DNA of 63,889 bases, filler included, from a bacterium (GTDB lineage Bacteria > JAMOTN01), in the NCBI GenBank assembly GCA_027062325.1. It is 3 parts of 3 records of this genome, joined end to end, with 100 filler letters (N's around TTAATTAATTAA, not from the genome) between each part and the next. Parts side by side here need not be neighbours in the genome. Positions count along the whole stretch, not along the records: positions 1 to 25,282 come from JAMOTN010000061.1; positions 25,383 to 48,669 come from JAMOTN010000064.1; 1 more part is not named here. One strand, given 5' to 3'. Positions 9,545 to 31,849 of this stretch are shown in pieces; the stretch's first letter is position 1; every line of letters begins with the position of its first letter. The notes under the pieces are model-generated. The model was not told the DNA's origin, ran no database searches, and saw nothing but the letters and a program-made list of their open reading frames with translations. The translations under genes and the position numbers were made by a program.

Positions 9545-9590
9545 TTCAGGGCTAGATTTGCATACGCATTACTTCCCGATACGCTTCTAA
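9545..9590. repeat. left arm of 46-bp perfect inverted repeat (fliE 3' end including stop); partner 9974-10019
   Basis: TTCAGGGCTAGATTTGCATACGCATTACTTCCCGATACGCTTCTAA is the exact reverse complement of 9974-10019. Confidence 0.97.
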
Positions 9591-9788
9591 AATAGCTTCT
9601 TTCAAACGCGTCACTGTTTCCACAGCAAGAGATGCCTTTTGGGTAGCCACGGTGAGTTCGTGTATGGAGGCTTTTCCCTTTACAAAATCACGTTCAACTT
9701 TAGTAGCTTGTTTTTGGAGTGAATCAGCCCAGTTTATGCTTTTTGAGATGTTAGAAAAAATAAAACGGGAATTGTTAACTACCCCCAT
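9552..9788 (-). CDS. fliE: flagellar hook-basal body protein FliE
   Basis: IHELTVATQKASLA and LEAYREVMRMQI C-terminus; start at MGVVNN after AGGGGG. Confidence 0.9.
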   Translation of the reverse strand: MGVVNNSRFIFSNISKSINWADSLQKQATKVERDFVKGKASIHELTVATQKASLAVETVTRLKEAILEAYREVMRMQI

Positions 9789-9842
9789 TTTTGGCCCCCC
9801 TATGGTGAAACGGTCGATTTGCAAAGAAGTAAATTTTAAAAG

Positions 9843-9916
9843 CGCCCCTGGGAGGACTCGAACCTCCGACACGTGGATTAGGAATCCACTGCTCTATCCG
9901 CCTGAGCTACAGGGGC
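9843..9916 (-). tRNA. tRNA-Arg (CCT), CCA not encoded
   Basis: GCCCCTG/CAGGGGC stem; GTGGA-TTCCTAA-TCCAC; GTTCGAGTC. Confidence 0.96.
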
Positions 9917-9934
9917 GCGTACTTCTCTAATAAA

Positions 9935-9963
9935 ATCTTACATTAAGTTTTTTGGGGCTTCAA
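9935..9963 (-). promoter_or_regulatory. sigma70-type promoter for tRNA-Arg/fliE/TPR gene
   Basis: TTGAAG-N17-TAAGAT (TG in spacer end), 18 bp upstream of the tRNA. Confidence 0.6.
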
Positions 9964-9973
9964 GGGTAAGTTA

Positions 9974-10019
9974 TTAGAAGCGTATCGGGAAGTAATGCGT
10001 ATGCAAATCTAGCCCTGAA
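9974..10019. repeat. right arm of 46-bp inverted repeat (intergenic copy of the fliE 3' end)
   Basis: TTAGAAGCGTATCGGGAAGTAATGCGTATGCAAATCTAGCCCTGAA, which reads LEAYREVMRMQI* on the + strand. Confidence 0.97.
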
Positions 10020-10056
10020 AAATTTCAAAATGAAATATAAGTGAAATGCGGAACGC

Positions 10057-10095
10057 AAAATAAAACTTTTGAAGAGTGGAAAAAAGTTTTATTTT
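10057..10095. repeat. 14-bp perfect inverted repeat (11-bp spacer) upstream of yifB
   Basis: AAAATAAAACTTTT ... AAAAGTTTTATTTT. Confidence 0.8.
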
Positions 10096-10140
10096 AGGCA
10101 TGAATTTTGCCTTTATCCCCTTAAAGGGGGGGAGGCAATT

Positions 10141-11598
10141 ATGAGAGTGTTAGTAAAAACTTTGATGTTGGAAGGCTTGAAGGTTATTGAAGTTGATGTA
10201 GAAATAGCAGTTGTAAGAAGTGCTATACCAGTACATAATATTGTTGGTTTGGCGTCAAAAGAAGTAAAAGAGAGCTTTGAAAGGATAAGGGCTGCGTTTG
10301 AGAGTGCAGGATTGAAGTTACCTGCCGGTAAGATCACTGTTAACTTATCACCTGCTGATATTGTTAAGAGAGATACAGGTTTTGATCTTGCGATAGCTGT
10401 TGGATTAATGATTGCATTGGGGAGTGTTAGGAGGGAAATTATAAAAGATGGGTTTGTTGTTGGGGAAATTGGATTAGATGGAGAGGTAAAAGCTCCCAGG
10501 GGATTAGTGCTTTTTGCAAAGTATGCTTTGTTACAAGGGAAGACTTTGATATGCCGCCCGATAGGACTTTTAGAATTGTTTAAGGGATTAAATATTCAGC
10601 CTGTTTACAGTATTAATAGCTTAATGGATAAAACTAAGGTTATTGAGATGCCGGGGAGCATTTTAGAGGTGAGTGAGAAGAATAATTTTAATATTGACTA
10701 TGTTTTATTGAATGAGGAAGAGAAATTATTGGTTAAATTACTTGCTGCTTGGGATGTAAATGCACTTTTTATAGGACCACCTGGGAGGGGGAAGAGTTTT
10801 ATAGCAAATTTGATTGCATGGTTGAAGGCTCCTCTTACTTATGAAAAGTATTTAGAAGTGATAGGAATATATGAATATGCTGGTGAGAGAAGGGTTAGTA
10901 GAGAAGTGCCGGTGAGGAGTCCTCATTTTACGCTCTCTTACAGTGCAATGTTTGGTGGCGGAGATGGTATGCAGCCTGGAGAAGTGAGTTTGGCTCATAA
11001 TGGTGTATTAATTATGGATGAATTTCCTGAGTTTCCAAGAAGGATTGTTGAAGGATTGAGGCAGCCCCTTGTGGAGGGAAAAGTTCTTGTATCAAGAGCT
11101 TCGAAAAAAGTTGAGTTTCCAGCGAAGTTTCAATTGTTGGCAACTATGAATCCATGTCCGTGTGGTGAATTTGGATATGGATTTTGCAGTTGCAGTTTTA
11201 GAGAGGTGAGAGGTTATTTGAATAGAGTGTCGCGTGCTGTTTTGGATAGAATTCCTGTGGTGTACAATGTAGAAGGGAGGGGGAGAAAGGTTGTTAAAGT
11301 TAGTGACTTTAAAAATGAGGTGGAAGAATTAGCTAAGATTGAAGTACCGGCGTCTATGGAAATATTGAAGAGAAAGTTGAATTTAAAGGATCTACAGTTC
11401 CTTTATGAGTTGTTTGAAAAAAGAGGGATAAGTTTAAGAAAGGCTGTGCAGTATTTCAGGGTAATCTATATGTTGAGAGTTTTAAGAACAGAAGATGAGT
11501 TAATAAAAAGTTTGTTTTTAGAGCATTTTGATTACGTGGATAGATTAAGGTTAATGATGAGAAAAAAAGGGGGGAAAAGAATTGCGTTGTTGGAGTAA
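10141..11598 (+). CDS. YifB/ComM Mg-chelatase-like AAA+ ATPase
   Basis: ITVNLSPAD, GEIGLDG, GPPGRGKS, PGEVSLAHNGVL.MDEFPEF, MNPCPCG; start at MRVLV after GGAGG. Confidence 0.92.
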   Translation: MRVLVKTLMLEGLKVIEVDVEIAVVRSAIPVHNIVGLASKEVKESFERIRAAFESAGLKLPAGKITVNLSPADIVKRDTGFDLAIAVGLMIALGSVRREIIKDGFVVGEIGLDGEVKAPRGLVLFAKYALLQGKTLICRPIGLLELFKGLNIQPVYSINSLMDKTKVIEMPGSILEVSEKNNFNIDYVLLNEEEKLLVKLLAAWDVNALFIGPPGRGKSFIANLIAWLKAPLTYEKYLEVIGIYEYAGERRVSREVPVRSPHFTLSYSAMFGGGDGMQPGEVSLAHNGVLIMDEFPEFPRRIVEGLRQPLVEGKVLVSRASKKVEFPAKFQLLATMNPCPCGEFGYGFCSCSFREVRGYLNRVSRAVLDRIPVVYNVEGRGRKVVKVSDFKNEVEELAKIEVPASMEILKRKLNLKDLQFLYELFEKRGISLRKAVQYFRVIYMLRVLRTEDELIKSLFLEHFDYVDRLRLMMRKKGGKRIALLE

Positions 11599-12022
11599 GC
11601 ACTGTTACGTTTGTGGGGAGGATAATGAGTATGGGTTGCGCCTGAAGTTTTGCTTTAATTCCGGGGTTGCGTTTACTCATGGAAAATTCAGAAAGGAGTG
11701 GGAAGGGTTTCCTGGAGTTGTTCATGGTGGAGTAGTTGCTGCTGTGTTAGATGAAGTTATGTGGTATGCGGCGCTTTCGAATTTTAAAGAGTACAACTTC
11801 TTCACTTATGAGTTGAATGTTATGTACAAGAGAAGTTCTGCTGCTGGTTCTTTTGAAGCTTTCGCTAAAGTGATTGAGGCCTCTAAAAGAAAATGTGTGG
11901 TTGAGGCCAAACTTTATCAAAATGGTCAGCTTAAAGCTCAAGGGAGAGGAGTTTATTTGAAGACTTTGAGAAAAGTTAATTTGGATAGAGAGATGAAGTG
12001 TATTGAAAGTGAGGAGGGGTAG
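11582..12022 (+). CDS. PaaI family hotdog thioesterase
   Basis: CYVCGEDN..GL.L.F, EGFPGVVHGG...VLDE. Confidence 0.88.
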   Translation: MRCWSKHCYVCGEDNEYGLRLKFCFNSGVAFTHGKFRKEWEGFPGVVHGGVVAAVLDEVMWYAALSNFKEYNFFTYELNVMYKRSSAAGSFEAFAKVIEASKRKCVVEAKLYQNGQLKAQGRGVYLKTLRKVNLDREMKCIESEEG

Positions 12023-12024
12023 AT

Positions 12025-13317
12025 GTGGATAATGAGAGGGCTTTTGTAGATGAAGTTGTAATAAAGGTTAAAGCAGGAGATGGTGGAGATGGTGTTATAA
12101 GTTTTAGAAGGGAGAAATTTGTTCCCAAAGGTGGACCTGATGGTGGAGATGGTGGAAAGGGAGGAGATGTTATTTTAGTTGGAAGTTCTGAGATAAATAC
12201 TTTAGTGGATCTTTATTTTCAAAAGGAGTACAGAGCTGGAAGAGGAGAGCATGGTAAGGGAAAAAATATGAAGGGAAAGGATGGAGAAGATATTGAGATA
12301 AAAGTTCCGTTAGGAACAGTAGTTTATGATGATGAGACCGGTGAATTGATTGCTGAGATTTTACAGGAAGGGCAAAAAGTGGTTGTGGCTCGTGGTGGAA
12401 AAGGAGGAAGGGGAAATGCTAGGTTTAAGAGTGCAAAACATCAGGCACCACGTATAGCAGAGTATGGGGAAAAAGGGGAGGAAAAGATATTAAGGTTGGA
12501 ACTAAAGTTGCTAGCGGATGTTGGATTGATAGGATTGCCTAGTGTAGGTAAGTCCTCTATTTTGAGAAAAGTGAGTGCTGCAAAACCTAAAGTTGCTCCC
12601 TGGCCTTTTACTACGAAGAGGCCAATATTGGGAATGGTTAAGCTTGGAGATTTTTCTTATATAGTTGCTGATATACCAGGGATAATAGAAGGTGCGAGTG
12701 CTGGAAAGGGGAAGGGGATTGATTTTTTGAAGCATATTCAGCGTTGTGCTGTTTGGGTTTATGTTTTAGGATATGAGTATTTTGAAGGAAGTCTTGTGGA
12801 TGAGTATGAGACTTTAAAAAGGGAGGTTGAAAGTTTCAAGGAGCGTTTTGATATTGACAGACCTAGAAATGAGTTAATAGTGGTTAATAAGATTGACCTT
12901 CCTGATGTTGAAGAAAAGTTTGAAAGAGAGAAGGGAATGTTGAAGAAAATGGGGGAAGTTATAGCGATTAGTGCTTTAAATGGTGATAATATTGAGTTTT
13001 TAAAAAGGAGATTAGCAGAGCATGTGAAAAGTGTTAAAGAAAGAAGGGAATTTAAGGAAAAGTCAATTGTGGTTATGCAATTAAAACCTGTGGATAGGAG
13101 ATGGAAGATATACAGAAATGAAAATTTAATTGTTATTGAAGGAGAAGATGTAGAGACTCTGGTTGATAGAACGGTATTCAATACTCAAGATTCGCTTGAT
13201 AGGTTTAAAGAGATATTGAAAAGGTGGGGAATTATTGATGAGTTAATTAAGATGGGGGTAAAGGAAGGAGATACTATTGTAATTGGAGGTATGGAGTTTG
13301 AGTGGACGGGGATGTGA
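12025..13317 (+). CDS. obgE: GTPase ObgE with C-terminal OCT domain
   Basis: FVDEV.I.VKAGDGGDG, GLPSVGKSS, DIPG, NKID; C-terminal GVKEGDTIVIG. Confidence 0.97.
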   Translation: MDNERAFVDEVVIKVKAGDGGDGVISFRREKFVPKGGPDGGDGGKGGDVILVGSSEINTLVDLYFQKEYRAGRGEHGKGKNMKGKDGEDIEIKVPLGTVVYDDETGELIAEILQEGQKVVVARGGKGGRGNARFKSAKHQAPRIAEYGEKGEEKILRLELKLLADVGLIGLPSVGKSSILRKVSAAKPKVAPWPFTTKRPILGMVKLGDFSYIVADIPGIIEGASAGKGKGIDFLKHIQRCAVWVYVLGYEYFEGSLVDEYETLKREVESFKERFDIDRPRNELIVVNKIDLPDVEEKFEREKGMLKKMGEVIAISALNGDNIEFLKRRLAEHVKSVKERREFKEKSIVVMQLKPVDRRWKIYRNENLIVIEGEDVETLVDRTVFNTQDSLDRFKEILKRWGIIDELIKMGVKEGDTIVIGGMEFEWTGM

Positions 13318-13323
13318 TAAATT

Positions 13324-13843
13324 TTGGAGAAAGTAGCAAAGGAGATATTTTATGAGATTAAAAGAAAGTTAAAATGTTTGGATAGAAATAGACTGATTCA
13401 TACGTATGGTGTTTTATGGGCAGCTCTGAATCTTGCTGAAAAATATAAGCAAAATTTAAATGAAGTGTTTTTAGTAGCAGTTTTACATGATTTGTTGAGA
13501 GAGGAAGCAAGAAAAAAAGGAGATATTTTGAAACATGGAGAGTATGCTGCAAGGTGGTTTAATAATTTAGTAAATAAAAAAGGGGTAGTTGAAAAAGTAT
13601 TGAAAAGCTGGGGAATTAAGGTGGATGAGGTTTGTGAGGCTGTATCGTGTCATGTATTGGGGGAAGGATGCAATTTTATAGGAAAAATATTGTTCATTGC
13701 AGATTATTCAGAGCCAATGAGAAAACACAAGGAAGCTTATATAGTGTGGCGGATAGCTTTAAAAAATATTGATGAAGCTTTTTTAAAGAGCAAGGTTTTG
13801 AAAAGAGTATACTTTGAGTCGCGCAGTAGATTGCAAAGACTGA

Positions 13844-13854
<11 letters not shown>
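13324..13854 (+). CDS. YqeK-like HD-domain hydrolase
   Basis: RLIHTYGV, LHD, HG, FIADYSEP; obg-yqeK-LCP gene order. Confidence 0.8.
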
Positions 13855-16073
<2,219 letters not shown>

Positions 16074-16116
16074 TTTGAAAGCAAGAGTTTAAAGTTCAAG
16101 TGATAGGTGATGAAAA

Positions 16117-16794
16117 GTGTTTGGAGGTTTGGAAAATATAAAAAAGATGCCTAGGAAAAGGGCTGTGGTTCTTTTATCTGGAGGACTTGATTCTACGGCC
16201 TCTTTTTTGTGGGCTTTAAAAGAGTTTGATGAAATAAAAGTTGTATTTTTTGATTATTCTCAAATTGCTTATGAAGCGGAGAAAAGAAGTGTTTATAGAA
16301 TTGCCCAAAAATACAAGATTGAAGTTTTCGAGGATAAAGTAGATGTTTTGAAAAAAATTGCTCATCCTCTTAAAGATGAGAATGCGATAAAAGCTAGAAA
16401 AAGTATGTGGGTTCCAGCAAGAAATGTGGTTTTTCTATCACATGCAATAGCTTTTGCTGAGTTTTATGGATTTAATGCAGTGGTAATAGGATTTAATGCT
16501 GATGAAGGTGCTGATTTTCCGGATAATACGTTGGAATTTCTTGATGCTTTTAATGAGCTTTTAAAAATGACTTCTCCTGTAAGAGTAGTTTCGCCTTTTG
16601 TGCAAAAGAGTAAGGCCGAGATAGTTAAATATATTTACAATTATGATAGAGAGTTACTTTACCTTGTACATCCTTGCTATCTCAATGAAAAACTTAATTG
16701 TGGGAGGTGTGAGAGTTGTTTGAGATTCAAAAAGGCCCTGGAGAGCTTGAAAGAATTGAAGCTGGATTATACACGAATTTTCTTGGAGAATTGA
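16117..16794 (+). CDS. queC: 7-cyano-7-deazaguanine synthase
   Basis: LLSGGLDS, WVPARN, FPDN, CY..CGRCESC; start may be 16147. Confidence 0.92.
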   Translation: MFGGLENIKKMPRKRAVVLLSGGLDSTASFLWALKEFDEIKVVFFDYSQIAYEAEKRSVYRIAQKYKIEVFEDKVDVLKKIAHPLKDENAIKARKSMWVPARNVVFLSHAIAFAEFYGFNAVVIGFNADEGADFPDNTLEFLDAFNELLKMTSPVRVVSPFVQKSKAEIVKYIYNYDRELLYLVHPCYLNEKLNCGRCESCLRFKKALESLKELKLDYTRIFLEN

Positions 16795-17303
16795 ATTATA
16801 CGGGGGCTGAGCTTAGAAGTGGTTGGGTGTTTAGTATGGCTCCTAAAGCTGTGGGGTATGATTGGTTAGTTGCTTTTGTGGGGGAAGCAAAGGTTGAGGA
16901 TCAATTAGTAGATTTTGAAGATAGAGTAGCGGGGGATAAAATATACTCCCCAAGAATGTGGCAGTTGCTGGGAGAATTTTACCGCATGGATCTTTTGCAT
17001 GGAGTTTTGTTGCAGCGTCTGATAGTGGTGCAAGTAGCAGAGATTTTAAAAGATTTACTAGATGTGGATGTTTCTAGAGGTGGAGATGATTTATACATTG
17101 ATGGTAAAAAGTTATCGGTTAGTATAGCGACGCGGACTAGTGGTTCTGTCTTAATACATTTTGGTTTTAACATAGTTGAGGTAGATAAATGGGGATGGAT
17201 AAAGTTAAAAGATGTTAATGGATTTTCTAAGTGCTTTTTTGATAAATTCATTGGTGAATGGAAGAGTATAAATAGAGCTTACAGAAAGGTTGCTTGGAGG
17301 TGA
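16716..17303 (+). CDS. DUF366 family protein
   Basis: YTGAEL, LVDFED, QRL, GDDLY..GKKLSVSIAT, IHFGFNI; start uncertain, overlaps queC. Confidence 0.8.
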   Translation: MFEIQKGPGELERIEAGLYTNFLGELNYTGAELRSGWVFSMAPKAVGYDWLVAFVGEAKVEDQLVDFEDRVAGDKIYSPRMWQLLGEFYRMDLLHGVLLQRLIVVQVAEILKDLLDVDVSRGGDDLYIDGKKLSVSIATRTSGSVLIHFGFNIVEVDKWGWIKLKDVNGFSKCFFDKFIGEWKSINRAYRKVAWR

Positions 17304-18820
17304 AGATATTGCTTAGAAGAGATAAGTTTGTGTTTATCTTGTTGTTATGTTTATTAGTTGGAAATTGGGTGGGAGTGAATCCATTAGCGGCCGATTTTCT
17401 CACTGCTTCTTTAAGGGAGCTTCTTCCGTTCCCAAATGTTGGTACAGGTGAGGTTTGTGGGAATTGCAAGGAATTAAAGATGCATTATCCTGCTTGTATA
17501 TGGATAAGTAAGTTCGGAGATATTTATATAACGGATTCCAAAAACGATAGGGTACTGCTTTTGAAAGAGATAGATGGTAAATACACGCTTGTTGAAGAGT
17601 ATAAGTTTTCTCCTATGAGGGAGCCAGTGGGTATATGGGCATATTCGAATAAAATAGTTGTAGCTTCTAAACGAGGAAATAAAGTTGTAGTTTTTACCCA
17701 AGGAGGTAAATTGTTGGGCCAGTGTAAATTTAAGAGAAAAATTAAAAGGCCACGTGGAGTTGTTTATTACAAAGGAAGATTTTACGTTGCTGATACCCCC
17801 TCTAATCGTGTTTGGATTTTGGATGAAGACTTTAATTTGATAGGAGCCCTGCAGAAAGATGTGTATGGACCTAGAGGAGTGGCTGTTAAAAATAATGTTG
17901 TGTACGTAGCAAACAGTTTGAATTCAACGATTACGGGTTACAGTGTTGAGACAGGGGCTAAAGTTTTTTCATATAAGATTAAAGGTGCGAAAAATATACG
18001 CTATTTGGCATTTGATAAAATAGGAAGGATTTACGTTACTGATCAGAATGGAAAGAGGGGAGAAAATGGAATTCTGTGGTGTATTGATCCTGTGTTGGGA
18101 AAAAATGTTAAGTTAGCTGAGGGACTTAGGAGGCCTGAGGGAATATTTATAACTAACGATACCAGAATATTTGTGGTGGAAGGAGATGCGGATACTTTTA
18201 GAATGTTTAGGACAGACTCTTCCTATCAACAGGTGTGTTGGGCTGCTAGTTATTTAAATGTTGGTATGTACGATGAATTTTTGGAAAGTTTGAAAAATGC
18301 CTATGAGGACTCACAGTATAAGAAGTTTTGTGAAAAAGTGATTTTGCAATTAAAGGGAAATATTGGTGAAAAAGTTATAGCAAAGTATTTTCCAGAATTT
18401 GTTTCTTCGCAGTCGGGAAAGGGGAACTTCCAAATTGCTAGTAAGGATTTGGAAACAAAAGGTGAAAATAAAGATAAGAATTTGGTAAAGCAGACGGGAA
18501 AGAGGTTGGTGGAAAATATTGTGTCTAAATCTAAGGATAGTGCTGAGGTCCAAAATTCAAGTAAAAGTTCGAATATGGATAAGAAAAGTATTGCTGAGAG
18601 TAAGGATACTTCTATGGCGAGAAAAGATGGTTCTCATAAGAGTAAGGGAGATTCTACTTCAGAAATTAGTGAAGCAAAGGAAAAATCAAAGGGACAAATT
18701 AGTGTGGCTGCTATTATAACTGTAATTGGGGTGCTATTTGCAATAGGATTGATTTTGCTTATATTTTTGAAGAAAAAAGGGGTGAGAATGCGTGGAGGAA
18801 AGTGGGATAAATATAAGTAA
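17294..18820 (+). CDS. membrane-anchored NHL-repeat beta-propeller protein
   Basis: Repeated P.GV/I...YVAD...RV units; Ser/Lys-rich linker; C-terminal TM plus basic tail. Confidence 0.85.
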   Translation: MEVKILLRRDKFVFILLLCLLVGNWVGVNPLAADFLTASLRELLPFPNVGTGEVCGNCKELKMHYPACIWISKFGDIYITDSKNDRVLLLKEIDGKYTLVEEYKFSPMREPVGIWAYSNKIVVASKRGNKVVVFTQGGKLLGQCKFKRKIKRPRGVVYYKGRFYVADTPSNRVWILDEDFNLIGALQKDVYGPRGVAVKNNVVYVANSLNSTITGYSVETGAKVFSYKIKGAKNIRYLAFDKIGRIYVTDQNGKRGENGILWCIDPVLGKNVKLAEGLRRPEGIFITNDTRIFVVEGDADTFRMFRTDSSYQQVCWAASYLNVGMYDEFLESLKNAYEDSQYKKFCEKVILQLKGNIGEKVIAKYFPEFVSSQSGKGNFQIASKDLETKGENKDKNLVKQTGKRLVENIVSKSKDSAEVQNSSKSSNMDKKSIAESKDTSMARKDGSHKSKGDSTSEISEAKEKSKGQISVAAIITVIGVLFAIGLILLIFLKKKGVRMRGGKWDKYK

Positions 18821-19419: not shown

Positions 19420-19764
19420 ATGAGTTTGGATATTACTAAAGAAGTGAAGGATGGAGTTTTAGTAATAACGCTTAAGGGAAGAGCAGCTCATAGTGCTAAT
19501 CAAGAGTTGAATGCTGTATTGAATGATATAAAAATGACAGATGCGACTGGAGTGGTTTTTTACATGAAGGAATTGAGTTATTTGAACAGTATGGCAATAG
19601 GAAGTATTATTGAAGCTTTTAAATTGTGCACGGCGTTGGGGAAAAAGTTTTGTTTGGCTTCTTTGAGGCCTGAAATTGAGGAGTTGTTTAGATTAACAGG
19701 ATTGCTAAGTGTTATTCCAGTTGCTTCAACGTTGGAAGAAGCTTTGTCTAAAGTGAGTGCTTAA
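19420..19764 (+). CDS. STAS-domain anti-sigma factor antagonist
   Basis: YLNSMAIG phosphorylation loop; LFRLTGL; adjacent to the RsbW-like gene. Confidence 0.9.
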   Translation: MSLDITKEVKDGVLVITLKGRAAHSANQELNAVLNDIKMTDATGVVFYMKELSYLNSMAIGSIIEAFKLCTALGKKFCLASLRPEIEELFRLTGLLSVIPVASTLEEALSKVSA

Positions 19765-23173: not shown

Positions 23174-23195
23174 AGGTGTTAGAGGTGAGGATTAA

Positions 23196-23930
23196 GTGGT
23201 AAAAAACGATGCCGGTTTTGATTCTGGTTTCTACGTATTTCCATATGGAGTATTTGATGGGGATTTGAATATGGCGATAGATTGGGTTATATTCACTAAC
23301 CGTTTAAGAGGTTGGAGATTTTATAGGTGGAGTAAGCCTACACTTTCGTTTGGGAAGTTACAGAAAGTTGAAAATAGTAAGACATTGTGGAAAAAGTTGA
23401 AGGAGAATGGTATAGATTTGGTGAGACGACCCACCGGAGGACGTGCAGTTCTTCATCATAATGAGTTGACGTACTTGGTTGTAGATGAGGTTGGTAAGAG
23501 TTTAATGGCAGATTACTTTAAGGTTGCAGAAATTTTAATTGAAGTTTTGAAAAGAAAAAATCCGGCAGTGGAGGTGGAGAGAAGGAGTCGAGGAACTGAT
23601 AAATTTTGCTGCTTTGATGCACCGAGTTGGGGAGAGATAAAAGTTAATGGTAAGAAAGTAGTGGGAAGCGCTCAATACAGAAAAAGTGGGTACTTTCTGC
23701 AGCACGGAAGCATTGTTATAAAGCCTTCAGAATTTGAAGAACTTGTATTTGGGAAAAAGTCTCAAGGTATGGATGGGTGGTTAAATGGAACTCCGGAAGG
23801 TTTAGCAAAAGAATTTGAGGAATATCTTATATCAATTGGGGGAGTTGTGATTGAAGAAGATGATCCCTTGTGGCAAGAAGTTTTAGAAAAGGCTTTTGAG
23901 GTACGGGAGAAATTTGCAGTTCATATTTGA
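23196..23930 (+). CDS. lipoate-protein ligase / LipM-type octanoyltransferase
   Basis: NMAID, RRPTGGRAVLH, GKKVVGSAQ, LQHGSI. Confidence 0.9.
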   Translation: MVKNDAGFDSGFYVFPYGVFDGDLNMAIDWVIFTNRLRGWRFYRWSKPTLSFGKLQKVENSKTLWKKLKENGIDLVRRPTGGRAVLHHNELTYLVVDEVGKSLMADYFKVAEILIEVLKRKNPAVEVERRSRGTDKFCCFDAPSWGEIKVNGKKVVGSAQYRKSGYFLQHGSIVIKPSEFEELVFGKKSQGMDGWLNGTPEGLAKEFEEYLISIGGVVIEEDDPLWQEVLEKAFEVREKFAVHI

Positions 23931-24059
23931 CATGATGTTTTATTTTAAAGGACTTTAAATTTAGTTTTGTTTTTAAAAAAAACGTCTTGGTACATTTCAA
24001 CTTATTACCTGATTTGTCGATTGAATAAGTGGAAAGTAACTAAGCGAGAGGTGGAGTTT

Positions 24060-25031
24060 ATGCCTTTGTATAAGTTTTTTGATATTTTAAAGCTTGCTGT
24101 GGCTTTAGTGATTATTGTGGTTGCTTCGGGATTGAGTTCAACGTCTGTTCCGCATGTGGATGAAGAAAAGATTGATGTTGATGAACTCAGTACGGTTGAC
24201 GTAGTAAAAAATAAGGAATTAGCACGACAGATGAAAGAGCTTGATCTTATAGAAAGTTATAGAGTTTTAAAAAATGGTGGGACTTTTGGGAAAACCACAA
24301 AAAAAACAAAGGAAAATAGTAGATTCATAAACTTCAGGAGTAAAAAGGCTTCTGAAGAGTTGAATTTAAGTCTTGGCAGTACGATACTTGGAGGGAATGG
24401 TTTGTGTGTTGTAGAAACACCAGATGTTGTGGACAGTGGAACTTTTTTAGTTAATTTGAGTTTTATTTATCGTTATGTGAAATTACCACCTTTGGACAGT
24501 GAGACTGAAGAGATAAAGTTAACGGATAGAGCAGTAAATCACTCGGTTATTTTTTCTTTACGACCGTGGTTGCAGTTTGATCTAGGGTCGTTTGGAGATT
24601 ACCATTATTCCTCTCCTGCTACTTATGCAGGTGTAAAAGTAAAGCTTTTGGATTTTAGAAAGATGGCTTTTAGTTTAGGAGCTAGGAGGTTTGACTTTGA
24701 AAATACCCAAATGAGTGATTTGTGGCAATACTATGGTTATTTGAAATTTAAAATGCAAAACAGTAATTTTTATCTGAATGTTGTTTATGATGATAATACG
24801 GAAAGTGTTCTTTTGAAAGGAGGTTTAGCTTATACTTTCAATGCAGAAGGAGGACGAGTAAACATTTTAACATTTGAAAGTTCTCAGAATGAAGATGCAA
24901 TATTTAGCAAATATTTGGTTGGGTTTAGGACAGTTTCCCAAAAGGGGTACTCTATTACATTAGGAGTGCAACGCGATAGTAGTAGGTCGGAGTGGCTTTA
25001 CATGTTAAGTAGCGGTTTTGTATTTAGATAA
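24060..25031 (+). CDS. exported protein with probable C-terminal beta-barrel
   Basis: Signal-like segment after MPLYK (SD GAGGTGGAG); alternating beta-strand pattern; ends GFVFR. Confidence 0.6.
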   Translation: MPLYKFFDILKLAVALVIIVVASGLSSTSVPHVDEEKIDVDELSTVDVVKNKELARQMKELDLIESYRVLKNGGTFGKTTKKTKENSRFINFRSKKASEELNLSLGSTILGGNGLCVVETPDVVDSGTFLVNLSFIYRYVKLPPLDSETEEIKLTDRAVNHSVIFSLRPWLQFDLGSFGDYHYSSPATYAGVKVKLLDFRKMAFSLGARRFDFENTQMSDLWQYYGYLKFKMQNSNFYLNVVYDDNTESVLLKGGLAYTFNAEGGRVNILTFESSQNEDAIFSKYLVGFRTVSQKGYSITLGVQRDSSRSEWLYMLSSGFVFR

Positions 25032-25282
25032 GTGTGATCTTGGAGGAGCAATTCGATTTCTGTATAACGTGTGATATTCTGGTATAATTCTTTAAAGTCT
25101 TACTATTGCTCTATTTCAAAATTTTGTTATAAATTTATTACGGTGTTGGTTTGGGTGAGTGGTAGATAGTGTATTTTTGGTTTTAGGAGATGGGGGGATC
25201 AGCTATTAATAGGAAGTTGTTAAAGTTTTGGTTGTTCTTGCTTTCTACGGCTTCTCTCATATTTTTGATTCACAACTGTTCT

Positions 25283-25382
25283 NNNNNNNNNNNNNNNNNN
25301 NNNNNNNNNNNNNNNNNNNNNNNNNNTTAATTAATTAANNNNNNNNNNNNNNNNNNNNNNNNNNNNNNNNNNNNNNNNNNNN
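25283..25382. other. assembly linker (contig junction)
   Basis: N runs flanking TTAATTAATTAA (25327-25338). Confidence 0.99.
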
Positions 25383-25853
25383 TAACCTACTCTTTCCAAT
25401 TACCAAAACATGTTTTCCCGAAAATTCAAAGTTGTAAAAGTCTAAAATTTCAAACACTGCTTCTACAGGTGCTGGTAAATACAACGCGTTTTCATCAATA
25501 ATTCTACAAAAATTCGCAAATAAAACTGCATCAAAATCAAGATCGGGATTGAGCTTACTCTCCAGCAGCTTTATACTTTTATCACTCAATGGCTTCAATA
25601 TTAATGTAGGGATACGATTAAGGTTCAACTTTTTTACAGCTGTGTCAGCAAGCTGCTCCTCTTCAATTAGGAGAATTTCTATCCCCAACTTTATAGCTCT
25701 TTTTTTTATAACTTCAAGATAAGCAAGGCTATCTTCAGCAACTGAGTAAACAACAGCCATTTTCAAAGATTCAACATTAGCACGTAGTTTTTCCAATTTT
25801 CTCTTTATTTTATCAAGTATATTCTTAGCTACTATCCTACCCTCAAGCTTCAT
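25383..25853 (-). CDS. folD: FolD, N-terminal part truncated by the contig end
   Basis: LEGRIVAKNI, GIEI, LNPDLDFD, LPAPVEAV, GKHVLVIGKS. Confidence 0.8.
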
Positions 25854-25889
25854 AAACGCTATGGAGCACCACCTTTCCTACCATGCAAC

Positions 25890-27203
25890 TTAGTTCTCCA
25901 CTATATCAAGTATCATCTTTTCTCTCTCTATCTTTTCAGGGAATATAACAACAGACGCAGCAAGCTCTTCCAAAGCTTTTTTCAACTTATTTTCATCGTT
26001 ATAGTACAATTTAAAAATCACATCTCCCTTTTTAACCTCATCTCCAACCTTTCTCTCGAACCACGCTCCAACACCGTAATCTATCTCATCCTCTTTCTTT
26101 TGACGTCCAGCTCCCAAGAGCATAACTGCACGTCCAACTTTTAACGCATCTATAGCACTAATGTAACCATCCCGAGAAGCTTTAAACTCATAAACCTTCT
26201 CTCCTTTTGGAAGAAGTGAGTAATCCTCAACAACTCGTGGATCTCCTCCCTGACGCTCTATCATCTCACGCAACTTATCCAATGCCTCTCCACTTTCCAG
26301 TTTCTCACGCGCTTTTTCCCTTGCCTCATCTATGCTTTCCGCTTCATTAGCAAGGTATATCATCCAGCTGGCAAGTTCTAAACATTTATCTGTAAAATGA
26401 GGCTCTCCTTTTCCTTTTAAAGTATCTATTGCATCCATAACCTCAAGCGAGTTTCCAACAGCCCACCCCAGAGGCTCATCCATATTAGTCAAAAGAGCAA
26501 CAGCCTTTTTACCTTCCATATCTGCAATTTTCACCATGTAGTAAGCAAGTTCTCTTGCATCCTCAATATCCTGCATGAAAGCTCCTCTACCAACCTTAAC
26601 ATCAAACACAAATCTGTCAGCTCCAGAAGCCAACTTTTTGCTCATAATACTGGAAGCGATTAAGGGAATACTTTCAATTGTGGCAGTAACATCACGCAGA
26701 GCATAAATTTTCTTATCCGCTGGGGCAATGTTTGCAGTCTGTCCAATCACTGCAATACCAACTTCTTCCACCTGTTCTACAAACTCTTCACGAGACAGCT
26801 CTACTCTAAAGCCAGGAATTGATTCAAGTTTATCAAGAGTTCCTCCGGTGTGCCCTAGTGCTCTACCAGACATCTTTGCAACTATTGCCCCTGCAGCTGC
26901 TGCAATTGGACCTACTATCAATGTCGTTTTATCTCCTACTCCACCAGTAGAATGCTTATCCACTTTTATTCCTACAATATCAGAGAGATCTACTATATCT
27001 CCAGAGTCACGCATTACTCGAGTTAACCACAATATTTCATCCTCATTCATCCCATTAAGAAAAACAGCCATTAGAAATGCTGCCATCTGATAATCTGCAA
27101 CTTCTCCACTCACATATCCATTTACTAAGAATCTTATTTCTTCCTCAGTAAGAGGAAGTGAATCTCTCTTTTTCTTAATCACATCATAAGCTGTTAATAC
27201 CAT
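25890..27203 (-). CDS. pdp: pyrimidine-nucleoside phosphorylase
   Basis: DKHSTGGVGDKT, KMSGRALGHTGGTLDKLESIPG, SIMSKK. Confidence 0.96.
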   Translation of the reverse strand: MVLTAYDVIKKKRDSLPLTEEEIRFLVNGYVSGEVADYQMAAFLMAVFLNGMNEDEILWLTRVMRDSGDIVDLSDIVGIKVDKHSTGGVGDKTTLIVGPIAAAAGAIVAKMSGRALGHTGGTLDKLESIPGFRVELSREEFVEQVEEVGIAVIGQTANIAPADKKIYALRDVTATIESIPLIASSIMSKKLASGADRFVFDVKVGRGAFMQDIEDARELAYYMVKIADMEGKKAVALLTNMDEPLGWAVGNSLEVMDAIDTLKGKGEPHFTDKCLELASWMIYLANEAESIDEAREKAREKLESGEALDKLREMIERQGGDPRVVEDYSLLPKGEKVYEFKASRDGYISAIDALKVGRAVMLLGAGRQKKEDEIDYGVGAWFERKVGDEVKKGDVIFKLYYNDENKLKKALEELAASVVIFPEKIEREKMILDIVEN

Positions 27204-27225
27204 CTTTACCGCCTCCCAAAAGTTT

Positions 27226-27969
27226 TTATACAAAAAATGCCGTAAGTTTGAGAACCACCATAAATATAAGCTTGTACAAAATGTGAATTACAGGATTTAA
27301 TATTCCCAAACTCAACAGCAATATAATTATAAAAAAGCCTGCAAAATCCATTTCAAATACATCCTCTTCCCAATTAAAAATAGCTGCAAGCATCCTGGAT
27401 CCATCAAGTGGTGGAATCGGTATAAGATTAAAAGCTGCCAACATAACATTTATCTGCATTGCCATCATTCCCAAATAAAAGAGTATCATTCTCCCCAATC
27501 CCATCTTATACTTAAACATAAATCCATAAGCAATCGAGTACTCCACTCCTCCCTTTGCAACCAATACCATAAATACTCCCCAAAATATGGCTTGAATAAT
27601 ATTTGCTAATGGCCCTGCAGCAGCTACCCAAAATATTCCCCAACGTCTAGGTTTTAATCTGTAAAAGTTTACAGGTACCGGCTTCGCCCAACCAAAGTGA
27701 AAAAATATTAAGCTCAGAAGTCCAAGCACATCTATGTGATCCAGTGGATTTAAAGTGAGTCTTCCAGCCCTATAAGCTGTATCATCTCCGAACAAGTAAG
27801 CGACCCAACCATGTGCAACTTCGTGGAGAACCACAGCCATTATGTAAGCAGGAAGTGCTACAAGTAGTGCTACCATCTTTGCCATATTAAAAACCAAACC
27901 ACCAGATAATAACTTTGAAATTATCCAAAGTACCACTATAAGTATAATTAGTTTTTGCAACTTACCCAC
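27226..27969 (-). CDS. site-2 protease (M50)
   Basis: HEVAH, GWAKPVP, NLIPIPPLDG. Confidence 0.93.
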   Translation of the reverse strand: MGKLQKLIILIVVLWIISKLLSGGLVFNMAKMVALLVALPAYIMAVVLHEVAHGWVAYLFGDDTAYRAGRLTLNPLDHIDVLGLLSLIFFHFGWAKPVPVNFYRLKPRRWGIFWVAAAGPLANIIQAIFWGVFMVLVAKGGVEYSIAYGFMFKYKMGLGRMILFYLGMMAMQINVMLAAFNLIPIPPLDGSRMLAAIFNWEEDVFEMDFAGFFIIILLLSLGILNPVIHILYKLIFMVVLKLTAFFV

Positions 27970-29162
27970 TTTTCTACCAACTCCCTTTGTTTCATCTCAG
28001 ACAATCCATTTTCAGAAGAAACAACTTCAGCAATCAAGCGCTTCTTCAATACACCTACCTCTTTTCCAAGAAGTCTTACTCCCTTCTTAGCTGCAATGTT
28101 TATTATATCGTTACCCGACAATTTTACTTGTTCAACTCTCTCTTCAATAACCTCAACCATATCAGTAAACAACCTTGAAATTTTCTTACCCATAGGACTC
28201 AAAATAATATACAATTTGTAAGCTTCTTTTAAATTGTCGATTAAAGCTAACTCTTTCAAAACTTCAATTTCTTCTAAAACCCTCATCTCCTTCTTTGTAA
28301 AAGCAAAACGCTTTGCCAATAGTTCAATGTCATCTTGATCCAATCGTGAGTCAAGAATCATGGACAAAATCGTTATCAAAAAAGCTTCATTATTAAATTC
28401 TTTTCTGCTCCGCAAAAAATTTTCAATCAAATCTCTATTCGGCTTTTTCAAAAAATGAACCACTTCATTCGGAACAAGATTGTACTCATATATAAATTCT
28501 AAGCAATTTATAAGCTTATCCTCATCCGCAATCCGCTCAAACTCTGATCTAATCCTAGCGGGGGTAAGTCTAGATATGTAGTTTTTATCAAGTAAAATTC
28601 GATTAAAAGTTTCTTCTTCAAACTCAAATTCAAAACGCTCTTTATAGCGAACAGCCCTGTAAATCCTGGTTGGATCCTCAACAAATGAATCTCTTTTCAA
28701 AAAACGTATCAATCTCTTTTTTAGATCCTCTCTACCCCCAAAGGGATCAATTAGCTCCTCAGGCTCTGGCCATAAGCGATAAGCCATCGCATTTATTGTA
28801 AAATCTCTGCGTTTCAAATCATCAACAATTGTCTCTGCTTCACTCACCTTTGGCAAAACTGAAGGTTCAGGATAATACTCTCGTCTGAATGAAGCTACAT
28901 CTATCAACTTACCAATCTTTACTACAAAATACTCATCCCAAAATTCCATATCCTCAAGGGGAATATTCAACTCTTCCGCCAGAAGAATAGCAAAGTGCTT
29001 TCTCGAACTTGAAACAACTAAATCGACATCCTTAAACTCCTCTTCTCCTCCTTTTAAAAGCCAGTCTCTTACAACTCCTCCAACAAGGTAAAGCTCTACA
29101 CCCAACTGTTCAGCAATCTTCTTAGCCTTCTTCTTCAATATTGGTAGATTTACCTTCTCCAC
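27948..29162 (-). CDS. tRNA nucleotidyltransferase (class II CCA/A-adding)
   Basis: VGGVVRD, DVD, RREYYP..LP.V, RRDFTINAMA, EDPTRI.RA.RY. Confidence 0.9.
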   Translation of the reverse strand: MEKVNLPILKKKAKKIAEQLGVELYLVGGVVRDWLLKGGEEEFKDVDLVVSSSRKHFAILLAEELNIPLEDMEFWDEYFVVKIGKLIDVASFRREYYPEPSVLPKVSEAETIVDDLKRRDFTINAMAYRLWPEPEELIDPFGGREDLKKRLIRFLKRDSFVEDPTRIYRAVRYKERFEFEFEEETFNRILLDKNYISRLTPARIRSEFERIADEDKLINCLEFIYEYNLVPNEVVHFLKKPNRDLIENFLRSRKEFNNEAFLITILSMILDSRLDQDDIELLAKRFAFTKKEMRVLEEIEVLKELALIDNLKEAYKLYIILSPMGKKISRLFTDMVEVIEERVEQVKLSGNDIINIAAKKGVRLLGKEVGVLKKRLIAEVVSSENGLSEMKQRELVEKWVSCKN

Positions 29163-29511
29163 CTTTTAATCCACTACTCCCCTTCTTTCCAAGAGAAGAA
29201 AGCACTCTTTCTATCTTAGAGGGAATATCACTTTCTGAAATCAAATCTATCCAACTTTTAGCTTCTTTAACCCTTATGAATCGAACATCATTGCCACTAA
29301 CTACCAGAAAACCAACCGGTTCCACACTAACAACTCCTCCACTTCCTCCCACCTCTGGATCCCCTTTGCCGCCAACAGCATAGCTAAAACTCACCTTACT
29401 CACGGGGATCACAGACACACTTCCTATCACAATCTCTTCCCCTATAACCAGATTTGCTTTTGCCGTTTCTGTAAGCTGCTCAAACAAAGCTATTAGTGTT
29501 TTTTCTATCAT
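29122..29511 (-). CDS. YtfJ/GerW family protein
   Basis: VIGEEI, IPVSKVSF, GGSGG.VSVEPVGFLVV. Confidence 0.88.
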   Translation of the reverse strand: MIEKTLIALFEQLTETAKANLVIGEEIVIGSVSVIPVSKVSFSYAVGGKGDPEVGGSGGVVSVEPVGFLVVSGNDVRFIRVKEAKSWIDLISESDIPSKIERVLSSLGKKGSSGLKGGEGKSTNIEEEG

Positions 29512-29529
29512 GCATAACCACCATCCGGG

Positions 29530-29955
29530 TTATTTATCTTCTGAAGAATTATTTTTTTCATCCTCCTTAGGAGTCTCAGAAGAGTCCTGCTCTGAAACTA
29601 CTTTTTCAACAACAGGTTCTCCTTTCTCCGTATTCTCTACACTTTGAGAAAGAGCCTCCATTTTCCTCTTCAAATCTTCTATCATTCTCTCTATATCATC
29701 TAGGTCTTTCACATACAATTGAGCTTTCTCTTCAAAGTCTGCTCTTTTATTCTTGCTGTATTCATAATACAACTGTCCCAACATAGCAAACTTTGCTTCC
29801 CTCTCTTTCTCCAATTCAGCAATTCTAAGCTTAATCTTTCCTATTTCCGTCAAACGCTTGGCCTCCTCTGTAGCCTTCTCTGTAAACTTAACTGTTGCGT
29901 CTTTTGCTTTATTTGCAAAATCTTTCACTTTTTCAAATACGTTTTTAAAATCCAT
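29530..29955 (-). CDS. helical/coiled-coil hypothetical protein
   Basis: 141 aa ORF with good SD; amphipathic N-terminus, LGQLYYE, acidic tail. Confidence 0.75.
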   Translation of the reverse strand: MDFKNVFEKVKDFANKAKDATVKFTEKATEEAKRLTEIGKIKLRIAELEKEREAKFAMLGQLYYEYSKNKRADFEEKAQLYVKDLDDIERMIEDLKRKMEALSQSVENTEKGEPVVEKVVSEQDSSETPKEDEKNNSSEDK

Positions 29956-30016
29956 AAATTATCCCCCCTTTTTACATACAGTAATATATTAACCTAAAAA
30001 ATTACATTAGTAAATT

Positions 30017-30045
30017 AAAAGGGCAAGCTCTAACGAGCTTGCCCT
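30017..30045 (-). terminator. intrinsic terminator after flgMN
   Basis: 11-bp stem AGGGCAAGCTC/GAGCTTGCCCT followed by TTTAATTT on the - strand. Confidence 0.85.
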
Positions 30046-30056
30046 ATATTTTCATA

Positions 30057-30101
30057 GTGGATGGGAATCCTGCGAAACTCGTAGGAATCAACAGTGTCAA
30101 A
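30057..30101. repeat. left arm of 45-bp perfect inverted repeat (copy of internal lpxA sequence, overlapping the flgN stop); partner 31244-31288
   Basis: GTGGATGGGAATCCTGCGAAACTCGTAGGAATCAACAGTGTCAAA is the reverse complement of 31244-31288; extends 7 more bp past one mismatch. Confidence 0.97.
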
Positions 30102-30546
30102 GTGATAATTCTAAACGTCCATAATTTCCCAACAACTCCTTCATTCTCTCAAGACGCGCAATCTTTCCTCTCAAAACTCTTTTGAATATCCTAATTTTTT
30201 CCACTACCTCAACGCTAACCCTGCTGAGCTCTTCCTCAAACTCAAAAAAACCACTCTCTTTCAAAACACTTTCTTTATCCAAAGTACTGCCTTCAATACG
30301 CTCCTTCATCGCTTGAATTGAATTTCTCAAATAGATATAGTAGTTTCCCCACAATTTTTCAAACTGCATCAACCTCTCGGCATAACTTTCCCAATTTCCC
30401 TCTTCTACAGCCTTTTCTACATCAGCAAAAGCAGCCTTCAACTCACCCAAAGCCTCTCTTAAATCATTCACCTGTTTTCTTACTTCAAGAAGCACCTCAC
30501 TCATACTATACACCTCTACGAACCTCCACAAGGCTTTCATGAGCAA
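30097..30546 (-). CDS. putative FlgN-like flagellar chaperone
   Basis: All-helical 149 aa immediately downstream of flgM; assignment mainly by synteny. Confidence 0.55.
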   Translation of the reverse strand: MLMKALWRFVEVYSMSEVLLEVRKQVNDLREALGELKAAFADVEKAVEEGNWESYAERLMQFEKLWGNYYIYLRNSIQAMKERIEGSTLDKESVLKESGFFEFEEELSRVSVEVVEKIRIFKRVLRGKIARLERMKELLGNYGRLELSL

Positions 30547-30551
30547 CTAAC

Positions 30552-30926
30552 TTAGAAGGACATCAATCTGTCAATCACTCCATCCTCTATCAATTTATCC
30601 GCCAACTTATCAAGATCTATTTTGTACTCTCCACTTTCCAACATTTTCTTAATTTTTTCCACTTTTTGCTCATTTATATCCATGGTATTTTTTACAACAT
30701 CAGCTGCTCTTCTCATCAAACGTATTTTTCTGACAGAATCAGCATTCTGCCCCATTAACCCTCGAGCACTTATCAAATCTGAAACGGATGCCTTCTTCCC
30801 TAAGCCTTCAGCCTTGGAAGTATCTACATCCTTACCTTTCCTCTCCAACCTCTTCTTTTCATCAATTTTGGTGTCAACGCGCCTGTATCCTCCACCTGAT
30901 CCAACTCTTCCTATTCCCCCCATCAT
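30552..30926 (-). CDS. flgM: anti-sigma28 factor FlgM
   Basis: C-terminal EQKVEKIKKMLESGEYKIDLDKLADKLI. Confidence 0.88.
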   Translation of the reverse strand: MMGGIGRVGSGGGYRRVDTKIDEKKRLERKGKDVDTSKAEGLGKKASVSDLISARGLMGQNADSVRKIRLMRRAADVVKNTMDINEQKVEKIKKMLESGEYKIDLDKLADKLIEDGVIDRLMSF

Positions 30927-31066
30927 AGCAACCACCCTCTTTTTTCATCGGGTTCTCTCCTGAATCTCATTTCTCTCCCCCCTTATTTTTTCGTAATATT
31001 TCATCAGTTTTTTAATAGGGGCCAGCTGCCTTTTAAAAATTAGACAACATCTTCAACATTACTTTC

Positions 31067-31843
31067 TCACCTCATAGGCTTTACATCATCCCACTTCTCA
31101 AAAAACTCTACAAAAATCTCCCCTATTCTACCCCAACTTTTTACCTCCTTAAGAACCTCAGCCAACTTAGGTTTTTCTCTGTATAGCTTATATACTTTTT
31201 TCGCCAGATCTATCTCTTCTTTTAAGAATCCACACCGATTGAGTTTGACACTGTTGATTCCTACGAGTTTCGCAGGATTCCCATCCACCATGAAAAAAGG
31301 AGGAACATCCATAGTAATTTTGCTCATTCCACCAACCATGGCATATTTCCCAATTTTTCTAAACTGATGTACTCCAGCCTTTCCAGCTATAACTGCATAA
31401 TCATCCACAATAACATGTCCTGCTAACATGGCTGCCTGAGACATTATAACTTCATTTCCTATAATGCAGTTGTGGGCTATATGAACATGTCCCATTAATA
31501 GATTTCTATTCCCAATTATTGTTTTTTCTCCTTCACCAGTCGCAACATGAATGGTTACAAACTCTCTTATTACATTTTCATCTCCTATTACAACGCAGCT
31601 TTCTTCTCCTTTATACTTTAAATCTTGGGAATCTTCTCCAATAATTGCATAGGGGTATATCTTGTTGCTTTTCCCTATAACTGTGTTTTTTCTAATGATG
31701 ACTCCTTGCATAATTTCTGTATCTTTCCCTACTTTAACCTCTGGACCTATGTAAGCAAACCTTCCAACTTTAACTCCGTCGTCTAATTCAGCCCTCTTAT
31801 CTACATAAGCAGTTTTATCAATATAAACTGCCATTCCTACCAC
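31067..31843 (-). CDS. lpxA: UDP-GlcNAc acyltransferase
   Basis: Hexapeptide repeats, QDLKYKGE, IREFVTIH, HIAHNC, VHQF, DVPPF. Confidence 0.95.
   Translation of the reverse strand: MVGMAVYIDKTAYVDKRAELDDGVKVGRFAYIGPEVKVGKDTEIMQGVIIRKNTVIGKSNKIYPYAIIGEDSQDLKYKGEESCVVIGDENVIREFVTIHVATGEGEKTIIGNRNLLMGHVHIAHNCIIGNEVIMSQAAMLAGHVIVDDYAVIAGKAGVHQFRKIGKYAMVGGMSKITMDVPPFFMVDGNPAKLVGINSVKLNRCGFLKEEIDLAKKVYKLYREKPKLAEVLKEVKSWGRIGEIFVEFFEKWDDVKPMR
31244..31288. repeat. right arm of 45-bp inverted repeat (inside lpxA, codons VDGNPAKLVGINSVK)
   Basis: Exact reverse complement of 30057-30101. Confidence 0.97.
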
Positions 31844-31849
31844 CTCATA

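Follow-up and report, generated by a model that had tools for sequence, protein, structure and literature searches.

The stretch of DNA analysed here (the window: 63,889 nucleotides from three contigs of the bacterial genome assembly GCA_027062325.1, lineage JAMOTN01) carries two long inverted repeats, designated IR1 and IR2, and a search of the whole assembly added two more of the same class, IR3 and IR4. Each pairs a segment of 44–53 bp with a nearby inverted counterpart, at spacings of 383, 958, 1004 and 1142 nt; the number, orientation and locality of the repeats, the native arm, the slight divergence between arms and, for IR2, the presence in sequencing reads were established directly. 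Natural template-switch duplication during replication or repair is, on balance, the probable origin of all four, although here we infer both the mechanism and the neutrality of the copies. An earlier note on the two window repeats had proposed a flagella-linked switch that needs no recombinase; that idea is dropped in favour of a few apparently young, inverted, templated copies in a genome without sequenced relatives. The flagellar neighbourhood of two of the repeats is best explained as coincidence, and RNA pairing between their arms as a by-product unless shown otherwise.

Identification of four local inverted repeats

The window joins contigs C61 (positions 1–25282), C64 (25383–48669) and C78 (48770–63889) with N spacers between them. 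IR1 lies on C61 and IR2 on C64, whilst IR3 and IR4 lie on C5 and C79, respectively, of an assembly of 1.65 Mb in 81 contigs (84% complete). In the whole-assembly self-comparison five local inverted pairs stood above background, namely IR1–IR4 and a stem flanking the 23S rRNA. The four repeats scored 66–97 bits in the gapped search (IR1 and IR2 89 and 97 bits, with 45 bits for the best mirror or complement control), the 23S stem 50.7 bits, and all other pairs at most 33 bits. Exact seeds were also counted (matches of at least 14 nt within 3 kb, with mirror and complement-only sequences as controls): inverted pairs form a background of 14–17 bp, followed by blocks of 21, 30, 45 and 46 bp that all belong to IR1–IR4; the longest control matches are 19 bp (mirror) and 15 bp (complement-only).

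The perfect repeats of 46 and 45 bp described in the earlier note are confirmed at their coordinates, far above these controls. The window scan and self-comparison likewise bear out that they are its only long inverted repeats (N-spacer joints aside), lie on different contigs and have no sequence in common. Across all four repeats, the self-comparison revealed no similarity between the arms of one repeat and those of another; by eye, a single 7-mer is common to two arms, roughly as expected by chance. Nor did the self-comparison reveal a copy of this kind in direct orientation, at a greater distance within a contig, or between contigs. The genes at all four sites are co-oriented, and along the direction of transcription each copy runs antisense to its source.

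The fifth pair (29 bp with one mismatch, 3011 nt apart; C25 156–184 / 3196–3224) flanks the 23S rRNA, is presumably the RNase III processing stem of that RNA, and serves as an internal positive control for the search. The proposed link to flagella does not survive the genome-wide view: two of the four repeats are at non-flagellar loci (rplJ and a PP-loop gene on C5; RNase P RNA and pfk on C79), an outcome of the kind that the earlier note had listed as counting against its proposal, and with n=4 no enrichment at flagellar genes is supported. A link between the arms and CRISPR was considered and rejected, the repeats of the C29 array (28–38 bp) matching none of the arms. That CRISPR-like array occupies C29 43224–43893, with repeats ~70–73 bp apart, and runs into the contig end; a single CRISPR-repeat-like copy is present on C76 at 16560–16593.

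The native arm is clear for IR1 (FliE), IR2 (LpxA) and IR4 (Pfk), the partner being intergenic in each case; for IR3 the arm in ribosomal protein L10 is probably the native one, as judged from sequence alignment. For the window repeats this agrees with the earlier description of one coding and one mostly intergenic arm (fliE and intergenic DNA at IR1; lpxA and the region 3′ of a flgN-like gene at IR2).

IR1, at fliE and tRNA-Arg

The arms of IR1 (9545–9590 / 9974–10019) are complementary at 46 of 46 positions and are 383 nt apart. Allowing one gap lengthens the repeat to 53 nt, with gapped homology as far as 9538, beside the ATG (9537) of a gene for a TPR protein. The features of the locus, in window coordinates, are as follows.

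9545–9590, minus strand: source arm; last 12 codons of fliE, its stop codon (9552–9554) and 7 nt of spacer
9974–10019, minus strand: copy arm; intergenic reverse complement of the fliE 3′ end (46/46)
9552–9788, minus strand: fliE, 78 amino acids (Pfam 1.2e-16, NCBIfam 4.2e-16); ATG at 9788 after a G-run ribosome-binding site
9842–9916, minus strand: tRNA-Arg (anticodon CCU), inside IR1; ARAGORN, Rfam RF00005 65.7 bits
9935–9963, minus strand: possible tRNA-Arg promoter, picked by eye; TTGAAG, 17 nt, TAAGAT (8/12)

The Pfam FliE model spans residues 14–78 of 78, and the fliE arm is taken to be native because it encodes the conserved C-terminus of the family. The tRNA-Arg and comM-like genes diverge, and the copy arm is located in the DNA that separates them, 57 nt upstream of the tRNA 5′ end. 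A consensus promoter scan listed no minus-strand promoter at tRNA-Arg, the candidate picked by eye being below the scan threshold; if that candidate is right, the copy arm lies outside the tRNA transcript.

The fliE gene is short (78 amino acids) and solitary, away from flgB and flgC, directly downstream of tRNA-Arg(CCU) and 14 nt upstream of the gene for the TPR protein (405 amino acids). IR1 marks the end of a small opposite-strand island on C61 (~7.4–10 kb). Both the tRNA inside IR1 and the position of the IR2 coding arm in lpxA, a non-flagellar gene, had gone unremarked in the earlier note.

IR2, at lpxA and the flgM unit

The arms of IR2 (30049–30101 / 31244–31296) are complementary at 52 of 53 positions; the perfect core of 45 bp comprises 30057–30101 and 31244–31288, 1142 nt apart. 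The locus is arranged as follows.

31244–31296, minus strand: source arm; lpxA codons 183–200 (FFMVDGNPAKLVGINSVK), at the start of the C-terminal domain
30049–30101, minus strand: copy arm; reverse complement of the lpxA piece, overlapping the stop codon of the flgN-like open reading frame (30097–30099)
30020–30045, minus strand: terminator-like hairpin of 11 pairs (7 G-C), with T-runs on both strands
30097–30546, minus strand: flgN-like open reading frame, 149 amino acids, directly downstream of flgM
30552–30935, minus strand: flgM (anti-sigma-28 factor); PF04316 5.5e-12, TIGR03824 5.4e-11
31067–31843, minus strand: lpxA, 258 amino acids, single copy in the assembly

LpxA matches the Pfam models Hexapep and Acetyltransf_11 (residues 179–248), and the lpxA arm is considered native because it lies inside this Pfam-covered domain. 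The copy arm starts 5 nt inside the end of the flgN-like reading frame and stops 3 nt before the terminator-like hairpin; since it sits between a stop codon and that hairpin, it is probably in the 3′ untranslated region (UTR) of the flgM/flgN-like unit.

Pfam and NCBIfam support the flagellar assignment of fliE and flgM, but not that of flgN: the open reading frame matched no FlgN model and no NCBIfam model, and gave only a weak match to DUF4363. The observation that each window repeat contains the stop codon of a flagellar reading frame is correct, but the two cases are not equivalent, as the stop codon is part of the source arm in IR1 and of the 5-nt edge of the copy arm in IR2. Directly upstream of lpxA, an open reading frame of 470 amino acids (31850–33262, minus strand) fuses an LpxC domain (residues 43–310) to a FabZ/FabA-like domain (330–452).

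IR3 and IR4, outside the window

The two remaining repeats involve the following features, in contig coordinates.

C5 18546–18589 / 19548–19591: IR3; rplJ codons 155–169 and residues 236–250 of a PP-loop (ThiI/MnmA-like) protein
C5 19260–20297, minus strand: PP-loop (SGGLDS) gene of IR3
C79 29197–29242 / 30247–30292: IR4; pfk codons 28–43, the other arm overlapping the stop codon of a gene for a protein of 371 amino acids
C79 29891–30230, minus strand: RNase P RNA (bacterial class A); RF00010 266.8 bits

When aligned to solved L10 chains, the rplJ arm of IR3 shows no insertion. The other arm falls in a C-terminal region of the PP-loop protein where conservation is poor, and causes no length change relative to 13 homologues, so that a piece of similar length seems, from these alignments, to have been replaced. 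No Pfam or NCBIfam model matches the PP-loop protein at E ≤0.01; its homologues carry ThiI, tRNA_Me_trans or PF18297 domains. The C-terminal third of this protein is highly divergent, with an insertion of 8 residues just after the repeat arm.

At IR4 the pfk arm is inside the PFK domain and the copy arm ends 16 nt before RNase P RNA. A TATAAT box lies 7–12 nt before the 5′ end of this RNA, with no recognisable −35 element; the copy spans −17 to −62, ahead of this TATAAT box of rnpB. The neighbours of RNase P RNA are the gene for the 371-residue protein, which belongs to no known family, and an open reading frame of 149 amino acids upstream of pfk.

Divergence between the arms

IR1 shows no difference over 46 bp, IR2 one substitution and IR4 two. 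IR3 has two 1-nt indels, 10 nt apart, and both reading frames are kept. All three substitutions have G in the coding arm and A in the copy (in the sense of the gene), i.e. C-to-T on the mRNA-like strand of the copy. By this sequence measure, the copies at IR2, IR3 and IR4 are of some age. As the earlier note had observed, there is short imperfect homology just past the arms; it is gapped, extends a few nt and occurs at IR1 and IR2, and the exact switch points would depend on the ancestral sequence. A diversity-generating retroelement was rejected as the source of the copies, with no match to PF00078 (reverse transcriptase) in the 84% complete assembly, 0–2 differences per pair and housekeeping genes as targets.

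Presence in sequencing reads

The read check placed contigs from four runs on window positions 29500–31900, and hence concerns IR2 alone. One hydrothermal vent metagenome run from 2018 contained 98% of the sampled words, with 6–10% in five other runs, and is the probable source of the assembly. An independent k=31 assembly of this run breaks exactly at the 45-bp core of IR2, which forms a 45-nt node of its own (depth 12) joined to the four neighbours that were expected, whose depth is even (7.2–8.8); both arms and all four junction contigs are recovered. A 151-nt contig from another study (2025) covers 30079–30229 with one mismatch, and so runs from inside the copy arm across the junction into the flgN-like reading frame. 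Two of the small-share runs contain same-species pieces from elsewhere in the stretch, together with lpxA of other organisms.

These data bear on whether the repeats are technical, as chimeras from strand-displacement amplification or assembler errors fixed in the consensus. Inverted chimeras predominate in strand-displacement amplification according to the available part of PMC9484634, the run from which the assembly probably derives is small, at 336 million letters, and the events are few, similar in size and young-looking, with the read check confined to IR2. Against this, all four junctions are recovered in the source run and one copy junction in a run from another study and year, a patch of ~50 nt within native flanks requires two precise switches, and three of the four pairs have diverged by substitutions or frame-keeping indels, which is unexpected from a high-fidelity switch. 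Because the arms are present in reads, a junction contig is independent and the arms differ, an artefact is unlikely for IR2, and we regard it as very unlikely for the repeats overall. Of the earlier suggestion that the repeats are template-switch scars, the natural form is thus favoured and the whole-genome-amplification form is not.

Separately, the graph of the source run branches at 30914–30943, in the flgM–lpxA spacer, with a 186-nt alternative after 30943 and a rise in depth to 12.7; this suggests a second strain or haplotype in the sample.

Relatives and strand composition

A search of the 30 nearest genomes revealed kinship at domain level only, the sole match being the tRNA. A metagenome scan with LpxA (80 loci returned) gave no close relative; among 596 metagenomic LpxA relatives the highest identity is 51%. 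Some of the proteins (4 of 10 and 2 of 6 queried) have exact counterparts in a protein collection, on contigs of 297, 376 and 57 kb; as two of these (297 kb and 376 kb) are much longer than the contigs used here, better assemblies of the organism must exist. The small open reading frames that span the copy arms had no exact match in that collection.

Absolute GC skew is ~0.26–0.39 per contig (five examined contigs plus the eight extremes on each side, among contigs >15 kb). This strand asymmetry is extreme, and the sign of the skew tracks gene direction: coding strands are very rich in G and poor in C, and long blocks of genes share one orientation. The skew is dominated by coding-strand purine loading and consequently gives no replication order of source relative to copy. 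Elsewhere on C61, six closely packed tRNA genes (Gly-GCC, Arg-TCT, His, Lys, Gly-TCC and Asn) occupy window positions 803–1390 on the plus strand.

Template switching as the proposed origin

In all four pairs one arm is a reverse complement of sequence nearby, which is native in three and probably so in the fourth (L10), and copies of this kind are local and inverted only, as template switching would predict. In the proposed mechanism, a transient strand switch would occur while DNA is replicated or a break is repaired: the 3′ end of the nascent strand would leave its template, prime on the complementary or nascent strand shortly behind, copy ~50 nt and return. Each repeat would then represent one nearby piece of 44–53 bp copied once as its reverse complement, 0.4–1.1 kb away on the same chromosome, a switch distance that would match a replication fork or Okazaki fragment. 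Copies would persist under purifying selection where they do little harm, in intergenic DNA, in a 3′ UTR or in a tolerant part of a gene; such selective survival would account for the pairing of one coding with one intergenic arm. Template switching that yields reverse-complement copies is an established mechanism, described in the available portions of PMC8794818, PMC7202029 and PMC5941160.

Several observations weigh against this interpretation. The copy-less ancestral state, which would be the defining proof, was not seen among relatives that are related at domain level only, and independent-run support reaches 23 nt of a single copy arm, that of IR2. Classical bacterial template-switch mutations have much shorter spacers. 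The lengths are nearly uniform (44–53 bp), three of the spacings fall within 958–1142 nt, and the gapped genome-wide search found no decayed older copies; a steady neutral process would not be expected to give this combination, which raises the possibility of a length ruler, a burst of events, rapid loss or maintenance. Of the three intergenic copies, two sit no more than 60 nt upstream of a stable-RNA gene (that for tRNA-Arg or for RNase P RNA), a placement with a probability of ~1e-3 by a rough, post hoc estimate that assumes uniform landing in intergenic DNA, and the third (IR2) abuts a strong hairpin. All three substitutions would, moreover, be G-U wobbles if the two arms were part of one RNA, which fits selection for pairing too. 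These features of size, spacing, age and placement might stem from forks that stall at heavily transcribed or structured DNA, from several events in one burst, or from a process with a length ruler.

Alternative explanations

Inversion of the enclosed segments, whether the arms recombine by homology or a recombinase has escaped recognition, appears highly improbable. At IR1 a flip would turn around the tRNA-Arg promoter together with fliE and alter read-through toward the TPR gene or the comM-like gene; fliE and tRNA-Arg would stay intact and only the downstream neighbour would change. Arms of at least 45 bp suffice for rare RecA-dependent exchange, and a second orientation is compatible with the k=31 contig graph, which is blind to orientation in that an inversion between perfect arms of 45 bp yields identical 31-mers. 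Under the earlier proposal of homology-driven invertible segments fliE at IR1 would be left intact, but the other three flips would break housekeeping genes: that of IR2 would replace LpxA residues 201–258 (the last 58) with 27 unrelated residues in a gene present once, that of IR4 would cut pfk after codon 43, and that of IR3 would split rplJ as well as the PP-loop gene. At all four sites the assembly, whose contig ends overlap by 126 nt, gives one orientation with no contig break, and the arms have no core site in common across the four repeats. In keeping with the earlier statement that no recombinase is encoded nearby, serine recombinase (PF00239) gave no match in the 84% complete assembly, and the two matches to tyrosine recombinase (PF00589), on C28 and C29, are not near any repeat. 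With three of four flips destructive, no invertase found and no common arm sequence, a role of the four repeats as a class in programmed inversion is not supported by their sequences.

A functional role as long-range RNA duplexes, in which the copy arms would be antisense modules in same-strand transcripts, is doubtful, although much is consistent with it and an origin by template switching followed by co-option is possible. The partners would be the flgM/flgN-like 3′ UTR and lpxA, the 3′ end of the 371-residue protein gene and pfk, and, at IR1, an upstream leader and the fliE 3′ end with the start region of the next gene; pairing in cis or in trans would let RNase III cut the 45–53 bp duplex and so couple the expression of neighbouring genes, or would process the precursors of tRNA-Arg and RNase P RNA in the manner of rRNA operons. 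Gene co-orientation with every copy antisense to its source would suit such a role, as would the probable transcription of the IR2 copy between stop codon and hairpin. No terminator-like site was found between the 371-residue protein gene and the IR4 copy, RNase III is encoded (PF14622, 52.8 bits, on C75), the other long local inverted repeat of the genome is the 23S rRNA stem, and antisense islands are conspicuous in a genome so strongly purine-loaded, with an absolute contig GC skew of ~0.31–0.39. Modelled as one minus-strand RNA, positions 9530–10030 fold with the full stem of at least 46 bp (−191 kcal/mol, z −9.5). The three arm substitutions, at IR2 and IR4, would keep G-U pairs on the mRNA strand; C-to-T deamination explains this wobble pattern equally. 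The near-perfect identity and abrupt ends, on the other hand, look young rather than selected, the IR3 indels would bulge the helix, and cleavage would destroy essential mRNAs (lpxA, pfk, rplJ) and deprive fliE of its stop codon. The sole plausible tRNA promoter lies downstream of the IR1 copy, above which there is no gene on that strand, and the IR4 copy precedes the rnpB TATAAT box; given these positions relative to promoters, two of the four copies may lie outside the relevant RNA. Rather unlikely, in our assessment, is an unrecognised dedicated process with a ruler of ~45–53 nt that makes inverted local copies preferentially beside stable-RNA genes, for instance patch synthesis by a repair polymerase or primase-polymerase, or transcription–replication conflict at strong promoters or terminators. 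The narrow ranges of length and spacing, with no continuum of sizes or ages, and the placement of the intergenic copies beside tRNA-Arg, RNase P RNA or a hairpin would fit; there are only four cases, in categories picked after the fact, no candidate enzyme was identified, reverse transcriptase (PF00078) has no match in the 84% complete assembly, and ordinary fork stalling fits the same facts. Decidedly unlikely is the combination of the two, in which ruler-like copying writes antisense patches of ~45–53 nt, some of them kept since RNase III cuts the lpxA, pfk or fliE/TPR duplexes. The setting would be a deep-branching vent bacterium, with patches taken from genes 0.4–1.1 kb away and set in UTRs and promoter-proximal DNA, preferentially beside stable-RNA genes and terminators; if true, this would amount to a home-made layer of antisense regulation in a strongly purine-loaded transcriptome.

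Natural template switching, if it is the origin of the repeats, would provide unusually clean examples of switches in the kilobase range. In one step, each would insert part of an essential gene into a neighbouring transcript in antisense orientation, and from such copies new RNA stems and antisense control could be built (compare the origin of RNA hairpins, as far as it is treated in the available part of PMC8794818). The uniform size of the copies and their placement by tRNA-Arg and RNase P RNA are the sole features that hint at something more.

Comparison with known systems

Invertons (of the Hin/Gin/Fim type, or intragenic) also have repeats that bracket a promoter-bearing or coding segment, and the genes within IR1 would survive a flip; here, in contrast, no invertase was found, there is no common core, and housekeeping genes would be destroyed in three of four flips. 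Typical invertase sites are also shorter than the arms seen here. The RNase III stems that flank rRNAs resemble these repeats in that distant complementary segments surround a stable RNA, IR1 enclosing a tRNA and IR4 RNase P RNA. They differ in that one arm is, in the present case, the coding sequence of a neighbouring gene and the copies are near-perfect instead of being evolved helices, whilst co-transcription of the arms is hypothetical.

Amplification chimeras, as far as they are covered in the available part of PMC9484634, arise by the same strand-switch chemistry that we propose, joining nearby sequences in inverted orientation. Their junctions occur in single molecules, whereas IR2 is a short patch in native sequence, recovered from two independent runs, and divergence has already set in at three of the four pairs. 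The closest likeness is to template-switch mutations (the quasipalindromes of Ripley, the E. coli reporters of Lovett and the four-point model of Monttinen and Löytynoja). In the accessible parts of those accounts, one event produces a perfect local reverse-complement copy with abrupt ends, needs no element-encoded enzyme and can create a long RNA stem, as would be the case here; the classical examples described there perfect imperfect hairpins that already exist, whereas the repeats of this genome are uniform copies of 44–53 bp placed 383–1142 nt from their source.

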